Source: Pseudoalteromonas tetraodonis (GTDB taxonomy: Bacteria > Pseudomonadota > Gammaproteobacteria > Enterobacterales > Alteromonadaceae). From it: a stretch of 32,000 nt of DNA. Under the pieces are notes generated by a model that saw only the letters and a program-made list of their open reading frames with translations, did not search any database and was not told the origin of the DNA. Both the position numbers and the translations under genes were made by a program. The stretch is taken from contig NZ_CP011041.1 in NCBI RefSeq assembly GCF_002310835.1, positions 330,001-362,000 of the forward strand. Direction: 5' to 3'. This document shows positions 8,598 through 18,862 of the stretch, in pieces (positions within the stretch are counted from its first letter, which is position 1; each line of letters opens with the position of its first letter).

Positions 8598-9281
8598 ATG
8601 CTCAACTGTGAACAAAAATACTTAATAGCGCCCTCAATATTATCTGCAGACTTTGCACGATTAGGCGAAGATGTCGACAAAGTGTTAGCCGCAGGTGCTG
8701 ATGTCGTTCATTTTGATGTAATGGATAACCATTATGTACCTAACTTAACGATTGGCCCAATGGTATGTAAAGCACTTCGCGACTACGGGATTAAAGCCCC
8801 GATTGATGTGCATTTAATGGTAAAACCGGTAGATAGTTTAATCCCACAATTTGCCAAGGCGGGTGCATCAATTATTACCTTTCACCCAGAGGCGAGCGAG
8901 CATATTGACCGTACTTTGCAATTGATAAAAGATGAAGGTTGCCAAGCAGGCTTAGTGTTCAACCCTGCAACGAGTTTAAGTTACCTCGATCACGTAATGG
9001 ATAAAGTAGATGTGATCTTATTAATGTCAGTAAATCCTGGGTTTGGTGGGCAAAGTTTTATTCCACAAACACTCGAGAAACTGCGAGAGGCAAAACAACG
9101 CATTGTTGAATCTGGACGTGATATTCGTTTAGAAGTAGATGGCGGTATTAAAGTAGATAACATAGCAGCGGCGGCTGAAGCGGGTGCAGATATGTTTGTT
9201 GCAGGCTCAGCTATTTTTAATCAGGCTGATTATAAAACGGTGATTGATGAGATGCGTCAGCAATTAGAAAGTGTTGAATAA
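8598..9281 (+). CDS. rpe: Ribulose-phosphate 3-epimerase
   Basis: [40 protein letters not shown] and EVDGGI motifs are present. The protein is 227 aa and shows rpe-gph-trpS synteny. Confidence 0.96.
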
Positions 9282-9946
9282 TGAAATATGATGCAGCGTT
9301 TTTTGACTTAGACGGCACCCTAGTTGATAGCGTGTACGACTTGTATATGGCTTTAAATTTAACACTTAGCGATTTAGCGTTTCCAATTGTCAGTCAGCGA
9401 TTAGTTGAAAGCTGGGTAGGTAATGGCATTGAGGTGTTAGTGAAACGAGCCCTTTGCGGCGATATGCAAATTAGTGAGCACCTCGATGAGGCTTTAAGCG
9501 AACGAGCTATCAATCTGTTTTATCAACATTACAGTGAGCAGGTCGGTGAATACAGTGTGTTATATCAGCATGTTGAAACTGGTCTTGCTGCTCTCAGTGG
9601 TATGCCTAAAGCACTTATTACTAATAAAGCACGCCGCTTTACTGAAATGCTTTTAGATAAGCTCGCTATTCGCAGTCATTTTGAAGTGATTGTTTGCGGT
9701 GACGACATGGCAAAAAAACCGTCACCTGAGCCGCTATTATTTGCTTGCGATGCATTAAATATAACGCCTTATAAAGCGATTATGATTGGTGATTCAAAGA
9801 GTGACATACTCGCAGCGCAAGCCGCTAACATTGACGTGATAGCGCTCACTTATGGGTATCACCAGGGAGAGCAGTTAGCGGATTATAATCCGCAGTACCT
9901 ATGCGATAACTTCTTAGCTATAATACCGACACTAACACAGCGTTAA
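9281..9946 (+). CDS. gph: Phosphoglycolate phosphatase (HAD superfamily)
   Basis: HAD motif I FDLDGTLVDS, motif II ITNK and motif IV GDSKSDILAAQAA are present. The start overlaps the rpe stop (TAATG) and the position matches the E. coli rpe-gph-trpS operon. Confidence 0.88.
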   Translation: MKYDAAFFDLDGTLVDSVYDLYMALNLTLSDLAFPIVSQRLVESWVGNGIEVLVKRALCGDMQISEHLDEALSERAINLFYQHYSEQVGEYSVLYQHVETGLAALSGMPKALITNKARRFTEMLLDKLAIRSHFEVIVCGDDMAKKPSPEPLLFACDALNITPYKAIMIGDSKSDILAAQAANIDVIALTYGYHQGEQLADYNPQYLCDNFLAIIPTLTQR

Positions 9947-9979
9947 GCATTTTTAATTAAGTAAAAATAAAGGAAAATC

Positions 9980-10984
9980 ATGAGTAAACCAGTAGTATTA
10001 AGTGGCATGCAGCCAACCGGTGGTATGACAATAGGCAACTATGTTGGCGCTATTAACCAGTGGGTTAAGCTACAGGAAGAATATGATAGCTACTTTATGC
10101 TTGCAGACTTGCATGCAATTACCGTACGCCAAGACCCTGAATTATTGCGTGCTCGTGTACTCGATGGCGTTGCGTTATATACGGCATGCGGTATTAACCC
10201 AGAAAAAGCGGCGTTATTTGTACAATCTCAGGTACCTGAGCATGCGCAACTTGGCTGGGTATTAAACTGTTATGCGCAAATGGGTGAGCTTAATCGCATG
10301 ACCCAGTTTAAAGATAAGTCGGCAACGCATGCTAATAATATTAATGTGGGGTTATTTGCTTATCCGGCTTTGCAAGCGGCTGATATTTTACTGTACCAAG
10401 CAGACAAAGTACCTGTAGGTGAAGATCAAAAACAGCATCTTGAACTAACGCGTGATATTGCAACTCGCTTTAATAATGTTTACGGCGATATTTTTACGCT
10501 GCCAGAACCGTATATTCCAGAATTTGGTGCGCGAGTCATGAGCCTGCAAGATCCACTGAAGAAAATGTCTAAGTCAGATGAAAATCCAAATGGCTTTATT
10601 ATGATGTTAGACGAGCCGAAAAAGATTGAGAAAAAGCTTAAAAAAGCAGTTACCGATTCTGACGAGCAAGCGCGTATTTACTTTGATCGCAAAGAAAAGC
10701 CAGGTGTATCTAATTTACTTACGCTACTAAGTGTGGCAACTAAGCGCTCAATTGAAGAGTTAGTCCCTGAATACGAAGACAAAATGTATGGCCATTTGAA
10801 AAAAGACACCGCAGCAGCTGTTGTCAGCATGATTGAGCCAATTCAAACACGTTTTAAAGAAATTCGTGAAGATCAAACACTTCTCAATGACATCATGAGA
10901 ACAGGGGCTGAAAAAGCAAGCGCGCGTGCAGAAACTACATTAAAAGCAGTTTATGATGCGGTTGGGTTTATTCCACGCCCATAA
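9980..10984 (+). CDS. trpS: Tryptophan--tRNA ligase
   Basis: It is a class I aaRS with a HIGH-like segment ([15 protein letters not shown]) and a KMSKS motif (KKMSKSD). It is 334 aa and is preceded by AAAGGAAAA. Confidence 0.96.
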
Positions 10985-10996
10985 GCGCGTTTATTT
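10907..10996 (+). repeat. Direct repeat copy 1: the authentic 3' end of trpS (last 25 codons, stop and 12 nt)
   Basis: By manual alignment this 90-nt segment matches 14848-14937 at all but 5 positions. The final 32 nt (ggtttattccacgcccataagcgcgtttattt) are identical in both copies. Confidence 0.9.
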
Positions 10997-11008
10997 GCAG
11001 ATACAAAA

Positions 11009-11036
11009 ATGCCGCTAATTTAGCGGCATTTTTTAT
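11009..11036. terminator. Bidirectional intrinsic terminator shared by trpS (+) and the TraB/GumN gene (-)
   Basis: The stem is atgccgcta/tagcggcat (9 bp) with a 3-nt loop. An A-tract lies on the 5' side and TTTTTT on the 3' side. Confidence 0.8.
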
Positions 11037-11106
11037 ATCACGCTGATTAACATTAAAAAGCCAAATATAAATAGAAGTGACATTGCTTGCTTGTCTGTTT
11101 TATCCA

Positions 11107-12027
11107 TCAATCGGCCTTAGCAGTTGTTTTGGAAGTTGTATTGTTAATATCAACTAAAGATACTTGGTAGCCTTTATTCTCAAGTAATGTCAGTAAGCTA
11201 TCTTCTCCGGCGAGGTGTCCTGCGCCCACAAGTACAAATTCACTTTTATCGTTTTTAAACATTTGTTCTAGTTTAACTAGCCAGTTATTGTTTCTATCGG
11301 TCATTAATTGTTTATAAGTTGCAGGATCATTTTTTTGCATCGGTTCAAGTGCTACTGTATAGAGCGATTGTGTATCACCCTCACGCCAAGCTGAGAGTAA
11401 TTTTTTAAACATCACACCGTAATTGTCAAACCCAGCTAAATTATTTTTGATAAAGTCATTTTCGTTATGTTCACCCATAGTCTTAAATAACTCTAACTGA
11501 AATGCCATCGTCTCTAAGTATTGTTGTTCTTTATTATCTAATGTCGCTTTTTTAGTAAAGTAAGCGTCAACGCCTTCACCCATTAAATTTTGTTTTTGCA
11601 ACTCCATCGACATCAGCACAATACTAACCATTGCTGGGCGAAAGTTATCTAATTTATTCAGATTTGCACCAAATTCAGCCAGCTTGTTTTCTAATGCGAG
11701 CTTTACCTCTGGAGTTAGCTTTTGGCTCAATGTTTCATTATTTTTATAGGATAGTGCGCTCAACATTTTCATTTGTGCTTGTGCATCGCTAGGATCAGGT
11801 ATTGGTGCTTCTAATACAATAGTATCTGCTTGTTTATAGGCGTGGTTAAACTCCACTGGTAGAGGCATTTCTGATTTCGGTAAAATGTGTACTGTGCCGC
11901 CAATAAATAATGAGTCATTTCCTTTGCTTACCTGCCACACTGAGCTTTGTGCTTGCACAGTCGTTGCTAATAAACAGCTGCTCAATAATACAGTTGCTGA
12001 AAATACTTTTTTAGTAAATGCGTTCAT
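11107..12027 (-). CDS. Secreted TraB/GumN family protein (Tiki/TraB/PrgY-like fold)
   Basis: It has a signal peptide (LLATTVQAQS) and the family-typical N-terminal WQVSKGNDSLFIGGTVHILP and C-terminal FVLVGAGHLAGEDSLLTLLENKGY motifs. An AGGAAG Shine-Dalgarno lies 5 nt upstream of the ATG. Confidence 0.8.
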   Translation of the reverse strand: MNAFTKKVFSATVLLSSCLLATTVQAQSSVWQVSKGNDSLFIGGTVHILPKSEMPLPVEFNHAYKQADTIVLEAPIPDPSDAQAQMKMLSALSYKNNETLSQKLTPEVKLALENKLAEFGANLNKLDNFRPAMVSIVLMSMELQKQNLMGEGVDAYFTKKATLDNKEQQYLETMAFQLELFKTMGEHNENDFIKNNLAGFDNYGVMFKKLLSAWREGDTQSLYTVALEPMQKNDPATYKQLMTDRNNNWLVKLEQMFKNDKSEFVLVGAGHLAGEDSLLTLLENKGYQVSLVDINNTTSKTTAKAD

Positions 12028-12054
12028 AACACTTCCTTAATGAAATTTTATTTA

Positions 12055-12405
12055 TTATTGATTGGTTAAAATAGTGCTTATATAAGTTGTTAGTGATGAC
12101 GTTATTTTCGAAAGGTTGCTATCAATTTTTGCGTTCATCTTGTTTATAGAAGATTCAAAGTCGGCCGTTATTTGATTCTCTATACTAGTAAATAATGTTT
12201 CAGTGTTTACTTCATGCTTAATGAGTGAATCGGTGTTTGTAGCATAAATTATTTGATTGCTATTGATAACTATTTCACCGGCTGCACATTGCCCTGAATT
12301 AGCTAATAGCGTGTTGCTTTTGCTTTCTGTAGCGACTGCAGAGGCTGTACTAAATACTGTTGCTAATATAATTACGGGTAATACTTTTTTAGTTGCGTTA
12401 TTCAT
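12055..12405 (-). CDS. Hypothetical small secreted protein (~116 aa precursor)
   Basis: The ATG at 12405 gives a clean signal peptide (MNNATKKVLPVIILATVFSTASAVA/TE). The longer ORF from 12447 has no Shine-Dalgarno sequence. The C-terminal half is Ser/Asn/Thr-rich. The gene lies 27 nt upstream of the TraB/GumN gene on the same strand, so the two are probably an operon. I recognise no family. Confidence 0.5.
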   Translation of the reverse strand: MNNATKKVLPVIILATVFSTASAVATESKSNTLLANSGQCAAGEIVINSNQIIYATNTDSLIKHEVNTETLFTSIENQITADFESSINKMNAKIDSNLSKITSSLTTYISTILTNQ

Positions 12406-12592
12406 AATGAAACCTTTTTTATGTTTAAAAGTCAGCTTAATTAACATTTAAAAGTCGTGTTCAGTAAGCTGCTTGTTGATGACGTTTTAAAGAATATCGC
12501 TGAATTTACCGAGAGTCGCTTATCTAGATGTGAGTGATTTATTTATAAGAATTTTTATTGTTTTTATTGTTTTAAATTAAAGTGTTAGCCTT

Positions 12593-12618
12593 AAACCTTA
12601 TCTGCAGAAATAAGGTTT
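12593..12618. promoter_or_regulatory. Perfect 9-bp inverted repeat in a divergent promoter region, a candidate operator
   Basis: aaaccttat-ctgcagaa-ataaggttt sits ~70 nt upstream of the ToxR/CadC-like gene. Tandem tttttattg x2 lies just upstream at 12552-12569. No flanking T-tract is present, so it does not look like a terminator. Confidence 0.35.
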
Positions 12619-12689
12619 CTAATTCACCTAACTATATTAAAAAGTGTACCTGTGATAGGGTTAGTGAAAAATAAAAATACGTAAACACT

Positions 12690-14834
12690 ATGAATTATCA
12701 AATCGGACCTTGGCAATTTATTAGTAATCGCTGTGTGATTACTTCAAACAACATGGAAAGGGAATTAGACCCACTTTTAGTAAAGCTGTTACTGTATTTT
12801 ATAGATAAGCCTCAACAAATCGTTTCCCGTCAAGCGCTAATAGAGAGTGTGTGGCAGCAAAGCTTTGTAGACGACAATGCGATTAATCGTGCTATTTCAG
12901 AGTTAAGAAAGCAGCTTGCTCACCCCATTGAAAAAGCGCCGCTTTTGAAAACGCATTACCGTAAAGGATATAGCCTAACAGTCATACCAGAGCGCTTAAC
13001 GCAAGCAAACGCTTCTGAAAAGCCTGCAAACTTTTTGCCTGACTCACCGGATATTTCTGCAAAAAATGAAGAGGTAGTGACTGCAACTACTTCTCAACCG
13101 GTTCAAAGAACGAATAGTAAAAAGCTTTTGATCTATTCTTTAGTCGTCATTATTTTTATATGCTTTTTAGTATGGTTTGGGTTGTTTTTTATTAATGCAC
13201 CTTCTAGCGAAAAGATTAAACAGATCACGGTTAATAAGGTAGCAAGCACGTGGAATATTGGCAGTGAAGTTCACCCTGAATTATCCTCAGATAAACAATA
13301 TTTAGCTTACACCAATATAGAACCTGAAAATGACGTAATGCATGCATTTGTTAAGCGTCTTTCAGATCAGCGAGAGATTGAAATTACCTATCCAGGCTTT
13401 CAGGTGTCTATTTTATCATGGCAGTTAAACCAGCACTCAGTGCTATTACAAGCTACCAATTTAAAGCAGCAAAAGTGCGAAATGGTACTTGTTGATTTAA
13501 GCCAGTTTCCTGTTATAGGGGAGGCTACCTCTATTAAAAAGTGTGACCTTAGATATACAGGTTATGCGCAAGTAGACGAAAGTGGTGAACATATTTATTA
13601 CACCGAATATAAAAATGAGCATGAAGGTTCAGGTTTATATAAATTTGATTTAGAACTTAAAAAAGAATTCATAGTGATCCCACCACCAGGGGTAATGTAT
13701 GGCGTAATCATGCCGCGTTTATCTCATTCTGGTAATAAAATAGCATATATACTTAGTCAAAAGGGTAAGCCTTTTTCTGTATTTAGTTATAACTTTGAGA
13801 CCCATGAAACCAAGCGGTTATTTAAAGCAGAAAAAAGCACGATTAGCTTTGCATTTGATTGGCTTGCTGACGATAAAGGCGTGATTGTATTTGAAGGTTC
13901 TGAGCTTTCAACCATTATGTTTGATGAAAAAAACATTGTTAAACATACGCTAACAGTAACCCCAAAGATAACTCCTTATTATATAGCGGTTCACTCTGCC
14001 AATAGTCTTTTTTATTCAGAGAATAAAACCCAATCATACTCGCTAATTAAAGCAACAGACCCTTTTGGCGATACACCTAAGTATGAAACGCTCTATAAAA
14101 GTGATAAAGACGACTACAACATTATTGAAATAGTTAATAAAGAAGGGCCTGCGCATGTTTTCGTATCTGAGCGTTCTGGCAGCAGTCAATTATGGCTCTC
14201 TCAAAATGGTTTTACAAAGCAACTTAGCTTTTTTAATTATGATGATGCCCCTTCGATTTTTGCATTAGGAATGCTCAGAGCTTCTCCCAATAAGCAGCGC
14301 ATAATGTTCATAAAAAATAAAAGCTATTCACTTTATGACGTAAGCGCTCAAAAATTTTATCCGTTAGAAGAATTTAATAAGCATAAAATAATAAGCTATA
14401 TTTGGTCAAAAAATAACGAAAGCATTATTTATATTAAGCGACTTGGTTCAAAAAATATATTGGCAGAGTTTAATTTACTCACTCGCGATACACGCGTGAT
14501 AGAAGGAGTAAAAGCGAATAAACTCATTTCAGATAGTAAAGGTAACGGATACGTAACCAATGATAATCAATTAATTCGCCTTTCAGATAGGCAAAGCTGG
14601 GAATTACCTAAAAATGCCAAAAAGTCAGTTGCATATGGCATTAGCAAAAACTATTTCTATTATTCAGATTCTATTTCTAGAATCGCTAGGCTAAATTTAC
14701 AAGATCAAACCATACAAGATACACACGTGGACTTTCGACCTATTGGTTTTGAGGTAAACGAAAGCAATGAAATATTGTTTACGGGATCTAAGTATAAAGA
14801 TATGCAAATAGTACAAATTAGTTGGGGCGAATAG
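12690..14834 (+). CDS. Membrane-anchored ToxR/CadC-like transcriptional regulator: N-terminal OmpR/PhoB-type winged helix, one TM helix, ~540-aa periplasmic domain (probably a TolB-like beta-propeller)
   Basis: The N-terminus matches the trans_reg_C pattern (ELDPLLVKLLLYFIDKPQQIVSRQALIESVWQQSFVDDNAINRAISELRKQL...YRKGYSL). The TM helix is LLIYSLVVIIFICFLVWFGLFFI. The C-terminal region is long, beta-rich and repetitive, resembling TolB/WD40-like propellers. The propeller assignment is tentative. Confidence 0.8.
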   Translation: MNYQIGPWQFISNRCVITSNNMERELDPLLVKLLLYFIDKPQQIVSRQALIESVWQQSFVDDNAINRAISELRKQLAHPIEKAPLLKTHYRKGYSLTVIPERLTQANASEKPANFLPDSPDISAKNEEVVTATTSQPVQRTNSKKLLIYSLVVIIFICFLVWFGLFFINAPSSEKIKQITVNKVASTWNIGSEVHPELSSDKQYLAYTNIEPENDVMHAFVKRLSDQREIEITYPGFQVSILSWQLNQHSVLLQATNLKQQKCEMVLVDLSQFPVIGEATSIKKCDLRYTGYAQVDESGEHIYYTEYKNEHEGSGLYKFDLELKKEFIVIPPPGVMYGVIMPRLSHSGNKIAYILSQKGKPFSVFSYNFETHETKRLFKAEKSTISFAFDWLADDKGVIVFEGSELSTIMFDEKNIVKHTLTVTPKITPYYIAVHSANSLFYSENKTQSYSLIKATDPFGDTPKYETLYKSDKDDYNIIEIVNKEGPAHVFVSERSGSSQLWLSQNGFTKQLSFFNYDDAPSIFALGMLRASPNKQRIMFIKNKSYSLYDVSAQKFYPLEEFNKHKIISYIWSKNNESIIYIKRLGSKNILAEFNLLTRDTRVIEGVKANKLISDSKGNGYVTNDNQLIRLSDRQSWELPKNAKKSVAYGISKNYFYYSDSISRIARLNLQDQTIQDTHVDFRPIGFEVNESNEILFTGSKYKDMQIVQISWGE

Positions 14835-14847
14835 CGCTATTCATTAT

Positions 14848-14925
14848 GCTGAAAAAGCCAGCGCGCGTGAAGAAACTACATTAAAAGCAGTTTATGATAA
14901 GGGTGGGTTTATTCCACGCCCATAA
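14848..14925 (+). pseudogene. trpS: trpS 3' fragment encoding the last 25 codons and the stop
   Basis: It translates in frame as [25 protein letters not shown]. The authentic TrpS C-terminus is [25 protein letters not shown]. There is no upstream coding continuity or start codon. Confidence 0.85.
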
Positions 14926-14937
14926 GCGCGTTTATTT
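14848..14937 (+). repeat. Direct repeat copy 2: an orphan copy of the trpS 3' end
   Basis: It has 5 mismatches in 90 nt relative to 10907-10996. It begins 14 nt after the regulator's stop codon and ends 9 nt before the stop of the minus-strand membrane-protein gene. It lacks the terminator hairpin that follows copy 1. Confidence 0.9.
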
Positions 14938-14945
14938 TTTATACT

Positions 14946-16007
14946 TTAATGTTTTGTAGCAGAAATACCGGCAGACTCACAGGCTCTAACTATAAATTGA
15001 TAACCGTAAGGCATGCTTTGATCAGGCGTTATTTCAATAATTTCGTAATCATTGAGCTCGATTGACTTACTCTCTGTTGATTTCTTACAACGTGAATAAC
15101 TGTCTGCTTCATAACTATAGGCAAACATGGCAATTAAGCGCTTACTACGTTCAAAGTAGCCTTTAGTATCTAAAAACTGTCTAACCGTTTGAGTGTTCTT
15201 ATCTTCGCCTTCTAAGCGAATACCAAATGTTTTTGTCTGAGCGCCGTCATTGTCTGAAGAGGGGAGTTTTTTCTCTATTTGCTCACTCAATTTTTCTATG
15301 GCTTGCTCTTGCTCAGCGGGGGATTTATTTGCGAGCGATTGGCTATTTTCAAAGCTATTTACTATATCGTTTAATACTTTTTCAGGCGGTTTTTCATCAA
15401 TAAATGCAATCAGACTTACAAACACTACCGTCGCTAAAAAAAAGCGGGTTAATGCAGTTAGAAGTGGTGAGTAGCTTTGGCTAATAAACTTTATGCGATC
15501 AGATCCAAATGGCTTGATTAGTAATAACACTATGATGTAAAAAGGCAAAATAAGTTGTAAGCCGAGCAGTGTTGCCAGAGTTATTCCTAGTGTCCAAGGC
15601 GGTAAATATAATAAAGTGGCAAAGTTATGAGTGTAATTAAAGTGATTAGCTGATACCTGAGTGACTTCATTTACAATGCCACTAGCACTTGCTAAAACAA
15701 AGTTAGCAATACTGGCATAAAATACCAAAATAAGTGCTTTACCGGCGAGTGAATTCCATAGTTGATTAAACTTAGGCCAAAATTCTATGATCAGCGCAAT
15801 AATAGTAATAGTGGCACATAGCCACGTTAACTTAAAAATGGCTAGGGTTATAAACGCAAGCAGATAAAGTTTTTGCGCGGTGTTAAGGTTAAACCATATG
15901 CTTTTTATATGGCTAAGCAGTTTAACTTGGTGTGGTTGCCAGCTTTTTTGCTGTTGCTTAAACTGCTTATTAGCACGCCATTTTGCAATTTTTAAATACC
16001 TTAACAC
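14946..16007 (-). CDS. Hypothetical polytopic inner-membrane protein with a C-terminal soluble domain
   Basis: The 353-aa protein has about 5-6 predicted TM helices (for example LYLLAFITLAIFKLTWLCATITIIALII, LILVFYASIANFVLASA, LILPFYIIVLLLI, FFLATVVFVSLIAFI), an acidic linker and a ~100-aa C-terminal domain. The start is GTG at 16007 with TAAGGAAAG 6 nt upstream. It lies only 29 nt downstream of the uvrA stop on the same strand. I recognise no family. Confidence 0.6.
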   Translation of the reverse strand: MLRYLKIAKWRANKQFKQQQKSWQPHQVKLLSHIKSIWFNLNTAQKLYLLAFITLAIFKLTWLCATITIIALIIEFWPKFNQLWNSLAGKALILVFYASIANFVLASASGIVNEVTQVSANHFNYTHNFATLLYLPPWTLGITLATLLGLQLILPFYIIVLLLIKPFGSDRIKFISQSYSPLLTALTRFFLATVVFVSLIAFIDEKPPEKVLNDIVNSFENSQSLANKSPAEQEQAIEKLSEQIEKKLPSSDNDGAQTKTFGIRLEGEDKNTQTVRQFLDTKGYFERSKRLIAMFAYSYEADSYSRCKKSTESKSIELNDYEIIEITPDQSMPYGYQFIVRACESAGISATKH

Positions 16008-16036
16008 CGACTTTCCTTATCTAAAGCGTATTACCG

Positions 16037-18862
16037 CTATTTATTTAATAGCGGTTTTAAGTAGTGCCCAGTATGTGAGCGCTGACATTCAGCTACTTCT
16101 TCTGGTGTACCTGCAATCAGTATTTCACCGCCGCCAGCACCACCTTCAGGGCCTAAATCAACGATCCAGTCGGCTGTTTTGATTACATCTAAATTGTGCT
16201 CAATCACTACAATGGTATTGCCATGATCGCGCAGACGATGCAGTACTACTAATAACTGCTCTATATCTGCAAAGTGCAGGCCTGTTGTTGGCTCATCTAA
16301 TATGTATAGCGTTTTACCGGTATCACGCTTAGAAAGCTCACGTGCTAACTTAATTCGCTGTGCTTCACCACCAGAAAGTGTTGTAGCGGCTTGGCCTAAG
16401 CGGATATAAGAAAGTCCAACATCCATTAGGGTTTTAAGTTTGCGTGCTATAGCCGGTATTTTATCAAAGTAGTCATGGGCATCTTCAACGGTCATGTCGA
16501 GCACTTGGTTGATGTTTTTGCCTTTATATTGTACTTCTAAGGTTTCGCGATTATAACGTTTACCCTTACACACATCACACGGTACATAAACGTCAGGTAA
16601 AAAGTGCATTTCTACTTTAATAACGCCATCACCTTGGCATGCCTCACAACGCCCACCTTTAACATTAAAGCTAAAGCGACCCACTTTGTAACCACGTGAA
16701 CGGGCTTCTTGAGTACCCGCAAACAGCTCACGAATACCGGTGAAAATACCAGTATAAGTTGCAGGGTTTGAACGCGGTGTGCGGCCAATAGGGCTTTGGT
16801 CAATATCAATCACTTTGTCAAAGTGTTCAAGGCCTGCAATTGACTTGTAAGGCGCCGCTTCTGCGGTTGTGGCACCATTAAGCTCAGTGTGAGCGAGTTT
16901 AAATAAGGTGTCGTTAATGAGTGTGGATTTACCTGAGCCCGATACACCGGTAATACAGGTCATTAAGCCAAAGGGTATTTTTAAATCAACATTTTTTAAG
17001 TTATTACCGGTAGCGCCAAACAGCTCTAACCATTTATCGTTAGTAGCATGGCGCTCTTTAGGCACTTCAATTTTACGCACCCCCGATAAAAACTGACCGG
17101 TAACCGAGTCTTTGCTCGCTAAAATATCATCGCGTGTACCTTGAGCAATAACATGGCCGCCATGCACACCAGCACCTGGACCAATATCAATAATATGATC
17201 TGCCGCGCGGATCGCGTCTTCATCATGCTCTACAACAATAACGGTGTTACCTAAATCACGTAAATGCACTAAGGTTTTTAATAAACGGTCGTTATCACGT
17301 TGGTGTAAACCAATAGATGGTTCATCTAATACATACATTACACCTACTAATCCAGCGCCAATTTGACTCGCTAAACGAATACGCTGTGCTTCACCGCCAG
17401 AGAGCGTGTCGGCGCTGCGCTCAAGTGATAAGTAATTTAGGCCAACATTTATTAAGAAAGATAAACGATCGCGAATTTCTTTTAAAATCTTCTCCGCAAT
17501 TTGGCCTTTTTGCCCAGTCAAATGCAAGCCTTCAAAAAAGCTCATTGCCTCACCAATACTCATATGTGTGATGGTTGGTAAGTTAGTTTGACCAATAAAT
17601 ACGTTACGTGCTTCTTGGCGAAGGCGCGAACCTTTACAACTAGGGCACGCTTGACTAGTTTGATACTTAGCTAGCTCTTCACGCACAGAGTTTGATTCAG
17701 TTTCGCGGTAGCGGCGGTTCATATTATTTAACACGCCTTCAAATACATGATTACGTGTAATTAAATCACCGCGGTCATTACGGTAATTAAATGCAATTTT
17801 AGTATCACCCGAGCCATCTAGAATAATTTTCTTATGTTCTTTTGCAAGCTCTTGATAAGGAACATCTAAATCAAAGTCGTAATGTTGTGCAACTGCTTGC
17901 AACATTTGATAGTAGTAAAAGCTGCGTTTATCCCAACCTTTAATTGCACCGCCAGCTAAACTTATCTCAGGGTTATGAACCACGCGATTAGGGTCAAAGT
18001 ATTGCCTTACACCTAAACCGTCACAGCTTTGACAAGCTCCTGCAGGGTTATTGAACGAAAATAGACGCGGTTCAAGCTCTGTCATCGCATAGCCACAGGT
18101 TGGACAGGCAAAATTTGCTGAAAACAGCATTTCTTCAGCATTGCTATCGTCCATAAACGCAATGTTGGCAACGCCGCCTGACATTTCAAGTGCTGTTTCG
18201 AATGATTCCGCGAGACGTTGTTGCTGGCCGTCTTTGACTTTAAAGCGATCAACCACGACTTCAATTGTGTGCTTTTTATGTAGATCTAGTGGTGGTGGAT
18301 CAGATAGGTCGCACACTTCGCCATCAATACGTGCGCGAATGTAGCCTTGGCTTGCAAGCTGCTCTAATAGCTTTACATGTTCGCCTTTACGGTCTTTAAC
18401 AACAGGCGCCAAGAGCATTAGCTTTGTGCCCTCAGGCAGTGCCAGCGCAGTATCGACCATTTGGCTGATTGTTTGCGCCGCGAGCGGTAAATCATGAGTC
18501 GGGCAGCGAGGCTCACCGACTCGTGCAAACATCAAGCGTAAATAATCGTAGATTTCAGTAATAGTTCCCACGGTTGAACGTGGGTTATGCGAGGTTGATT
18601 TTTGTTCTATGGAAATAGCAGGAGAAAGGCCTTCAATATGATCTACATCGGGCTTTTCCATTAATGACAAAAACTGCCTTGCATAAGCAGAGAGTGATTC
18701 AACATACCGACGTTGCCCTTCTGCATACAGCGTATCAAATGCAAGTGATGACTTTCCTGAACCAGATAAGCCAGTAATAACAATTAGTTTATCACGTGGG
18801 ATGGTTAGGCTGATGTCTTTTAAATTGTGCGTGCGGGCGCCTCGGACTTCAATGTTTTCCAT
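16037..18862 (-). CDS. uvrA: Excinuclease ABC subunit A
   Basis: The 941-aa protein begins [53 protein letters not shown]. It has two ABC ATPase modules (GLSGSGKS and [16 protein letters not shown] twice) and zinc-finger CxxC pairs. Confidence 0.98.

Follow-up and report, generated by a model that had tools for sequence, protein, structure and literature searches.

The 32,000-nt stretch of DNA analysed here (the window) comes from Pseudoalteromonas tetraodonis (NZ_CP011041.1, positions 330,001-362,000, forward strand) and carries the 3' end of trpS, the tryptophanyl-tRNA synthetase gene, twice, as direct repeats on the two sides of a three-gene cassette in the interval between trpS and uvrA. 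The trpS gene itself is intact (9980..10984, + strand, 334 aa; Pfam tRNA-synt_1b, E = 7.9e-80) and functional. The left repeat copy (10907..11037, + strand, 131 nt) consists of the last 25 codons of trpS, the stop, the 3' untranslated region (UTR) and a bidirectional terminator, and ends in ATTTTTTATA. The right copy, here called the orphan (14848..14943, + strand), has kept 90 nt, has lost 35 nt to a deletion and closes with the final 6 nt, TTTATA. Alignment of 10907-10996 with 14848-14937 matched 85 of the 90 positions, in agreement with the coordinates and the five mismatches given by the initial annotation of this DNA; the identical tail, given there as 32 nt, measures 34 nt. The mismatches fall at repeat positions 12, 23, 52, 53 and 56, and the 10-nt ATTTTTTATA, present at 11028-11037 and 14934-14943, is an additional part of the repeat. 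The runner-up direct repeat within 9000-17000 has just 30 nt at 80% identity, so that the trpS-end repeat is not due to chance and the reported duplication is real. As had also been noted, the orphan translates in frame as the 25-residue C-terminal end of TrpS; its reading frame differs from that of the regulator gene ending 13 nt upstream, at 14834.

The three genes between the copies are those originally described. The first, traB (11107..12027, - strand), encodes a TraB/GumN-family protein of 306 aa with a signal-peptide-like N terminus (Pfam PF01963, TraB_PrgY_gumN, E = 1.7e-68). It is followed by a gene for a small putative secreted protein (12055..12447, - strand; 130 aa as the longest open reading frame (ORF), 116 aa as called in most related contigs), which has one hydrophobic, signal-like N-terminal segment and no family match in Pfam or NCBIfam. 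The third gene (12690..14834, + strand) encodes a 714-aa ToxR/CadC-like membrane-anchored winged-helix regulator (Pfam Trans_reg_C, E = 8.4e-15), with one membrane segment at residues 141-159 and an N terminus that matches NCBIfam CadC at E = 1.1e-14, below the curated cut-off. The regulator protein differs by 2.5% between the window and strain SM9913, and is frameshifted to 667 aa in two of the compared sequences, which are designated by L numbers throughout (L109 and L110). Pfam found no integrase or transposase domain in these three genes and a tRNA scan found no tRNA gene in the window, as the initial annotation had stated for the space between the repeats. The suspected AT-richness of the interval was borne out as well, with a gene GC content of 0.32-0.37 between the copies against 0.42-0.44 in the flanks, and a GC content at third codon positions (GC3) of 0.28-0.32 against 0.33-0.38.

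TrpS and its neighbours group the window with strain SM9913 (CP001796.1, L093) and with genomes labelled P. tetraodonis. A scan of the genome collection gave nine Pseudoalteromonas species, and the trpS-uvrA interval was found in three layouts. Version I reads trpS, terminator, traB, small-protein gene, toxR-like gene, second terminator and uvrA, without the membrane protein gene that precedes uvrA in the window and without a repeat. It occurs in Pseudoalteromonas sp. H71 (L005), H105 (L006) and SA25 (L103), in P. carrageenovora (L104) and on a metagenome contig (L101), with regulator proteins 75-91% identical to that of the window. The traB orthologues stand at the same place in all five and in L107, and the small-protein gene is syntenic in all cassette-bearing species. 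On the contig L101 (1-1204 and 2571-3237), whose regulator gene is the closest of version I (91%), a gene for a DDE transposase also lies upstream of rpe, and gph is split into two ORFs.

Version II reads trpS, terminator, membrane protein gene and uvrA. In the window, the membrane protein gene (14946..16007, - strand) encodes 353 aa with about four membrane segments and a soluble C-terminal part, and belongs to no Pfam family; uvrA (16037..18862, - strand; Pfam UvrA domains) is the conserved right-hand flank, its protein being 94-100% identical across all layouts. Version II is the layout of the sister species (L001), of strain TB64 (L002) and of two sequences conspecific with the window (L094 and L095, TrpS identical to that of the window), in all of which the membrane protein gene directly follows the trpS terminator. 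Empty sites in relatives, for which the initial annotation had proposed to look, are therefore present even in sequences with the same TrpS protein, and TrpS is identical among conspecific strains with and without the cassette. The third layout is a fusion of versions I and II, found in the window, L081-L093, L096-L100, L105 and L109, and is the layout of every cassette-bearing sequence read in this species. Among the 18 conspecific places accounted for, seven are empty (version II) and 11 are fused. Finally, in P. prydzensis (L003) the membrane protein gene comes after a distant ToxR-like gene (44-46% identity), and both traB and the repeat are absent.

The bidirectional intrinsic terminator between trpS and traB (11005..11035; AAAAATGCCGCTAA-TTT-AGCGGCATTTTTT) was left unlisted by a simple terminator scan and was confirmed by RNA folding, which gave a hairpin of -21.3 kcal/mol (z = -5.3) after the first copy and no structure after the second. 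It is conserved at every Pseudoalteromonas locus read 3' of trpS (L001-L003, L005, L006, L101, L103, L104 and L107). Since in L001, L094 and L095 trpS and the terminator are followed at once by the end of the membrane protein gene (...GCGGCATTTTTTATA|TTTTAATGTTTTG...), the terminator is native to trpS, and relative to the empty site the insertion point is accordingly downstream of the terminator rather than where the 90-nt match stops. In 16 sequences (L081, L082, L085, L087, L088, L090-L093, L096-L100, L105 and L109) the orphan continues with GCAGATACAAAAATGCCGCTAATT[T/A]AGCGGCATTTTTTATA. The ancestral repeat is thus 131 nt long, made of 25 codons, the stop and 53 nt of 3' UTR including the terminator, and most fused strains carry it with the terminator. 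The orphans of the window, L083, L084, L086 and L089 are without 35 nt (unit positions 91-125), between two ATTT tetranucleotides that form a microhomology. This deletion took out the orphan hairpin and left TTTATA at 14938-14943; it is a secondary event, and it explains why, as first reported, a strong terminator follows the first copy only. An Rfam scan of 10500-15500 gave two sub-threshold matches over the terminator (10941-11048), RmaA at E = 0.013 and Trp_leader at E = 0.026. Neither was accepted as a real Rfam element, because the scores are below the gathering cut-off and most likely reflect the hairpin and T-run only.

The fused layout contains a single novel junction (14835..14848), at which the 13 nt after the regulator stop (CGCTATTCATTAT) are joined to trpS codon 310 (GCTGAAAAAG). 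The join point, CATTAT|GC, was read in 23 conspecific sequences with a cassette and is identical in all of them, three having one substitution in the 13 nt; its identity in every fused sequence indicates that the fusion arose once. A scan of metagenome contigs for the junction pattern gave one match only, L111 (about 4 kb), with the junction sequence of this species. Homology to the cassette-only species ends within the 13-nt junction. At the boundary between terminator and traB, and for a stretch into traB, the window is collinear with version-I species; at the boundary between terminator and membrane protein gene it is collinear with version-II genomes, in which the empty site (...GCGGCATTTTTTATA|TTTTAATG...) reads as the left copy followed by the right flank. 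Orphan, terminator and membrane protein gene match version II base for base, and everything from trpS by way of the terminator and traB to the regulator gene has the arrangement of version I. A single non-homologous join, together with a second end that was resolved in homologous sequence, is the pattern of homology-facilitated illegitimate recombination, and a displaced 3' fragment that lies beside its original downstream neighbour and is non-functional (through substitutions, a nonsense change and a deletion) is the pattern of 3'-end displacement. We conclude that the trpS-end repeat is probably a scar, now decaying, of an old recombination event in which two alternative versions of the interval became joined.

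The arrangement in P. prydzensis, with a ToxR-like gene directly before the membrane protein gene and no orphan, would also be compatible with an intrachromosomal origin, in which the 131-nt trpS end was copied between an already adjacent cassette and membrane protein gene by template switching or ectopic gene conversion and was kept as a terminator; the orphan did have a working bidirectional terminator at the outset. We nevertheless consider this origin extremely improbable, since the downstream boundary matches version II base for base, and since the loss of the terminator in the lineage of the window and in others, along with the decay of the orphan, argues against selection. To our knowledge, no mechanism readily copies a 131-nt segment 3.8 kb away with such an exact downstream boundary.

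The orphan could be followed through its decay by comparing 21 functional copies and 21 orphans with the inferred ancestral unit, which revealed three variable sites in the functional copy against 14 in the orphan. The functional copy of the window has one difference from the ancestral allele, A for C at position 12, which is a polymorphism shared among cassette-bearing strains, and the empty alleles L094 and L095 each differ from the ancestor at one other site. The five mismatches in the window are therefore four orphan changes and one functional-copy change, that at position 12, where the orphan keeps the ancestral C. The orphan of L100 has all 131 nt with no differences from the ancestral unit, that of L099 has one change and that of L091 two, those of L096, L097, L109, L093 and L098 form a series with two to four, and those of L092 and L105 have five, including a nonsense change of TTA to TAA. 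Orphans of the L081 group have five changes; the group of the window has four of these plus the deletion, and the fifth maps to the terminator loop that is deleted there. The strains can thus be ordered from one whose orphan is unmutated, through those with mutations in it, to those in which it has lost the terminator. Mean pairwise diversity among 11 fused strains is 4.3% in the orphan, against 0.2-1.8% in the flanks and 0.5-1.3% in the cassette. The orphan 3' UTR has the species-specific TAAGCGCGTTTATTT, where the sister species has TAGTCTTG..., and no intact trpS with the orphan variants of the window (AAGGGT) was found among metagenome contigs. The last result, together with the unmutated orphan of L100, rules out that the mismatches represent a foreign donor allele. 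The orphan derives from the species' own trpS and is a pseudogene fragment in decay, outside any expressed gene; the repeat mismatches are mostly drift in this fragment, not the signature of a foreign attP.

The initial annotation had proposed that the two copies are the attL/attR scar of a site-specific island integration, while allowing for a different mechanism, and it is the latter alternative that the comparisons favour. The three cassette genes lie directly between the trpS terminator and uvrA in at least five other Pseudoalteromonas species, without repeat or membrane protein gene. Moreover, L107 has flanks 95-100% identical at the nucleotide level to those of the empty L001, and so belongs to the sister species, yet cassette genes are present in it, namely traB (its protein 87% identical to that of the window), the small gene (97%) and the beginning of that for the regulator. 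Per 150 nt, its identity to the window is 0.81-0.98 in the cassette and 0.85-0.98 in the flanks; the cassette has thus diverged about as much as the flanks, which indicates that it is resident and not newly arrived. Within the species, cassette diversity (0.5-1.3%) is likewise on a par with that of the flanks. Low GC was rejected as a sign of foreign origin, because orthologues in species where the cassette is fixed are equally low (0.35-0.38 against 0.40-0.45) and the GC3 differences are small. Searches with the 3.8-kb cassette sequence against 72,556 plasmids and 50,697 phages gave nothing, at low stringency as well. Taken together, the comparisons indicate a resident rather than a foreign cassette.

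Certain hallmarks of an island are nevertheless present. Direct repeats of the target gene surround a discrete unit, sites without the cassette are known from conspecific strains and from the sister species, and the GC content of the interval is lower. In addition, the two ends of the 3,971-nt metagenome contig L111 both lie in the repeat and overlap by 31 nt, as those of a circle would. These features could suggest an integrase-less satellite islet at the trpS 3' end, with a tyrosine or serine recombinase encoded elsewhere and the two copies as attL and attR. This explanation is very improbable, given that the same three genes occupy the same place without a repeat in at least five other species, that the cassette co-diverges with its flanks in the sister species and shares its low GC with its orthologues, and that the repeat consists of 131 nt of the host's own allele and has a single novel junction, where an inserted island would be expected to have two. 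Neither foreign content nor a recombinase was found: Pfam detected none in the three cassette genes and six flanking genes, and in the precomputed Pfam lists for genes within about 8 kb of the conspecific loci the one recombinase was a strain-specific integrase of L109, beyond ssb. An attL/attR pair with its core in the identical 34-nt tail was also rejected, since the empty site has the terminator after trpS and the original repeat is 41 nt longer; the L100 orphan matches the inferred ancestral trpS end and terminator throughout, and 131 nt is far beyond what an att core needs. In L106, L110 and L111 the cassette forms a separate contig of about 3.9 kb that begins and ends inside the 131-nt repeat. 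As candidate circles these contigs are uninformative, because assemblers are expected to break in this way at a repeat longer than the k-mer, and a circular molecule would look the same. The island interpretation had originally been staked on the existence of empty sites and on a difference in composition. Both exist, and the interpretation is nonetheless unsupported; those two comparisons alone would have wrongly retained it.

Exchange between species at this locus is visible in TB64 (L002, 8620-12187), which has version II and in which rpe and gph are 98-99% identical to those of the version-I sequences L101 and L103 while TrpS is closer to the clade of the window (95% against 91%). Whole versions have thus been swapped between species through the conserved flanks. 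The uvrA of TB64 appears as several overlapping tblastn pieces, which suggests a frameshift or misassembly. The regulator gene of the window has a nucleotide identity of 0.85-0.97 to those of L101 and L103, compared with about 0.80 for trpS and about 0.73 for traB, a pattern that indicates interspecies exchange of the ToxR-like gene. Version-I species are also mosaic among themselves in this gene. The mosaic toxR-like and trpS genes would be indirect support for uptake or another transfer of DNA in this organism. On these comparisons, the trpS-uvrA interval is a recombination hot spot, for which uvrA is a likely homologous anchor.

The anatomy of the locus, its three layouts, the one junction common to the fused strains, the orphan's decay and the resident state of the cassette are directly shown; recombination as the mechanism of the fusion, and its direction, we infer. 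In the proposed event, a version-II fragment running from trpS codon 310 through the terminator and the membrane protein gene would have been joined to a version-I chromosome 13 nt past the toxR-like stop. The simplest route would combine one homologous exchange in a conserved flank with one illegitimate end-join, that is, homology-facilitated illegitimate recombination, and either version could have been the incoming one. Firstly, version-II DNA may have entered a version-I cell, been anchored in uvrA, and had its short trpS end joined illegitimately. Secondly, and as the mirror image, version-I DNA may have been anchored in trpS, so that the resident 3' end was displaced downstream. Thirdly, an illegitimately closed circle may have integrated by a single crossover in the 131-nt homology. 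Any of these would yield a 131-nt direct repeat of the cell's own trpS end and terminator around the 3.8-kb cassette. We mildly prefer the first, because it is a simple one-chromosome replacement and because a 131-nt end offers little homology for a second crossover. A foreign version-I donor crossing over inside trpS was rejected, since trpS and the left copy of the fused strains match the species' own alleles and polymorphisms. The second copy would at first have supplied a terminator between the convergent regulator and membrane protein genes, and would have been decaying since.

Repeats of 131 nt would be long enough for RecA-dependent deletion of the 3.94-kb unit. Between unmutated repeats such a deletion would restore version II exactly, and a flank-to-flank replacement would do likewise; the two processes together explain the presence/absence polymorphism of the cassette. 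The empty alleles may accordingly be retained version II, flank-to-flank imports or secondary deletions. A stricter account takes the fused layout as the older one, with a repeat of any earlier origin, and all empty alleles as secondary products of repeated deletion between the 131-nt repeats. The unmutated repeats of L100 would, by recombining, yield exactly the empty site of L094 and L095, strains with and without the cassette exist in both sister species, and L094 shares the A86 variant with the fused L091 and L100. We still regard this account as unlikely. The block of orphan, terminator and membrane protein gene reproduces version II, so that version II predates the fusion; the empty alleles are without orphan-specific variants, so that crossovers would have had to fall close to the repeat's 3' end, or the donors to be unmutated; and L002 is evidence that flank-to-flank replacement moves version II as well. 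This account deals with how the empty alleles arose, and does not conflict with the recombination scar that we favour as the origin of the repeat. It is quite improbable that the 131-nt repeats serve as homology arms of a module that needs no integrase and leaves and re-enters the chromosome by way of RecA and DNA uptake, with its polymorphism in two sister species maintained by balancing selection on the module of ToxR-like regulator and TraB.

Several points weigh against the recombination-scar reading or blur it. A pure version-I strain of the window's species was not found, and the parental joint sequence is hence without a match. The cassette-bearing contig of the sister species, L107, ends inside the regulator gene, before the junction. 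The sequence fits all three routes, with regard to direction as well as to a linear or a circular donor. It is unlikely that a recombinase encoded in the genome beyond the 32-kb window acts on the unit in trans. Finally, the A86 variant is present in both repeat copies of L091, which hints at gene conversion between them, a process that could have wiped out earlier history and blurred the age of the event.

The scar resembles those described at T6SS effector-immunity, rhs and CDI loci, where orphaned 3' ends with downstream genes were reported and homology-facilitated illegitimate recombination was proposed (PMC5361080; de Vries and Wackernagel 2002, Prudhomme 2002 and Jackson 2009 are among the works cited there). 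Common to both are one conserved anchor, one non-homologous junction, the absence of an integrase, an old 3' end of the anchor gene pushed downstream with its original neighbour as a decaying orphan, and the coexistence at the locus of plain homologous replacement of whole variants. In contrast to those loci, the anchor here is a single-copy housekeeping aminoacyl-tRNA synthetase gene where theirs is a polymorphic toxin gene, the displaced fragment is a duplicate of the same 3' end instead of an alternative one, and there is a single event rather than an array, with no apparent toxin-immunity logic. With islands at the 3' ends of tRNA, tmRNA or protein genes the locus shares an accessory segment, direct repeats of a gene end and empty sites in relatives; it differs from them in having no integrase, a genus-wide resident synteny, a 131-nt repeat of its own allele, one novel boundary and no link to a plasmid or phage. 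Campbell-type insertion-duplication, in which a circular DNA integrates by a single homologous crossover, and the formation of merodiploids in natural transformation (PMC3784515) likewise duplicate a homologous segment around inserted DNA and give a product that is unstable as the repeats recombine. The duplication here is of 131 nt rather than of kilobases, and such an origin would need a hypothetical circular intermediate closed at CATTAT|GCTG. The scar is thus of a known kind, produced by an ordinary mechanism and unusually well resolved, and is no new element or mechanism. It is a natural example of how homologous and illegitimate recombination can merge two alternative versions of an interval and afterwards separate them once more. 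It also calls for caution in island hunting, as repeats of a gene 3' end, empty sites and low GC all pointed to an island, and a wider comparison showed resident genes and a scar.

The membrane protein gene next to the orphan is hypervariable among strains. In L094 (8061-9074) its product has 59% protein identity, with flanks 95-100% identical; the gene has an internal deletion of roughly 150 nt in L095 (8061-8540), and in L081-type strains (L081 10292-11352) it is split into ORFs of 159 and 116 aa. Farther along the window, downstream of ssb, a second low-GC stretch (about 21-25 kb; GC 0.34-0.37) may be another variable site. The integrase gene of L109 mentioned above (GCA_040308615.1, 15603-16004) is of phage type and stands directly after ssb, where other strains have a gene for an EAL-domain protein.

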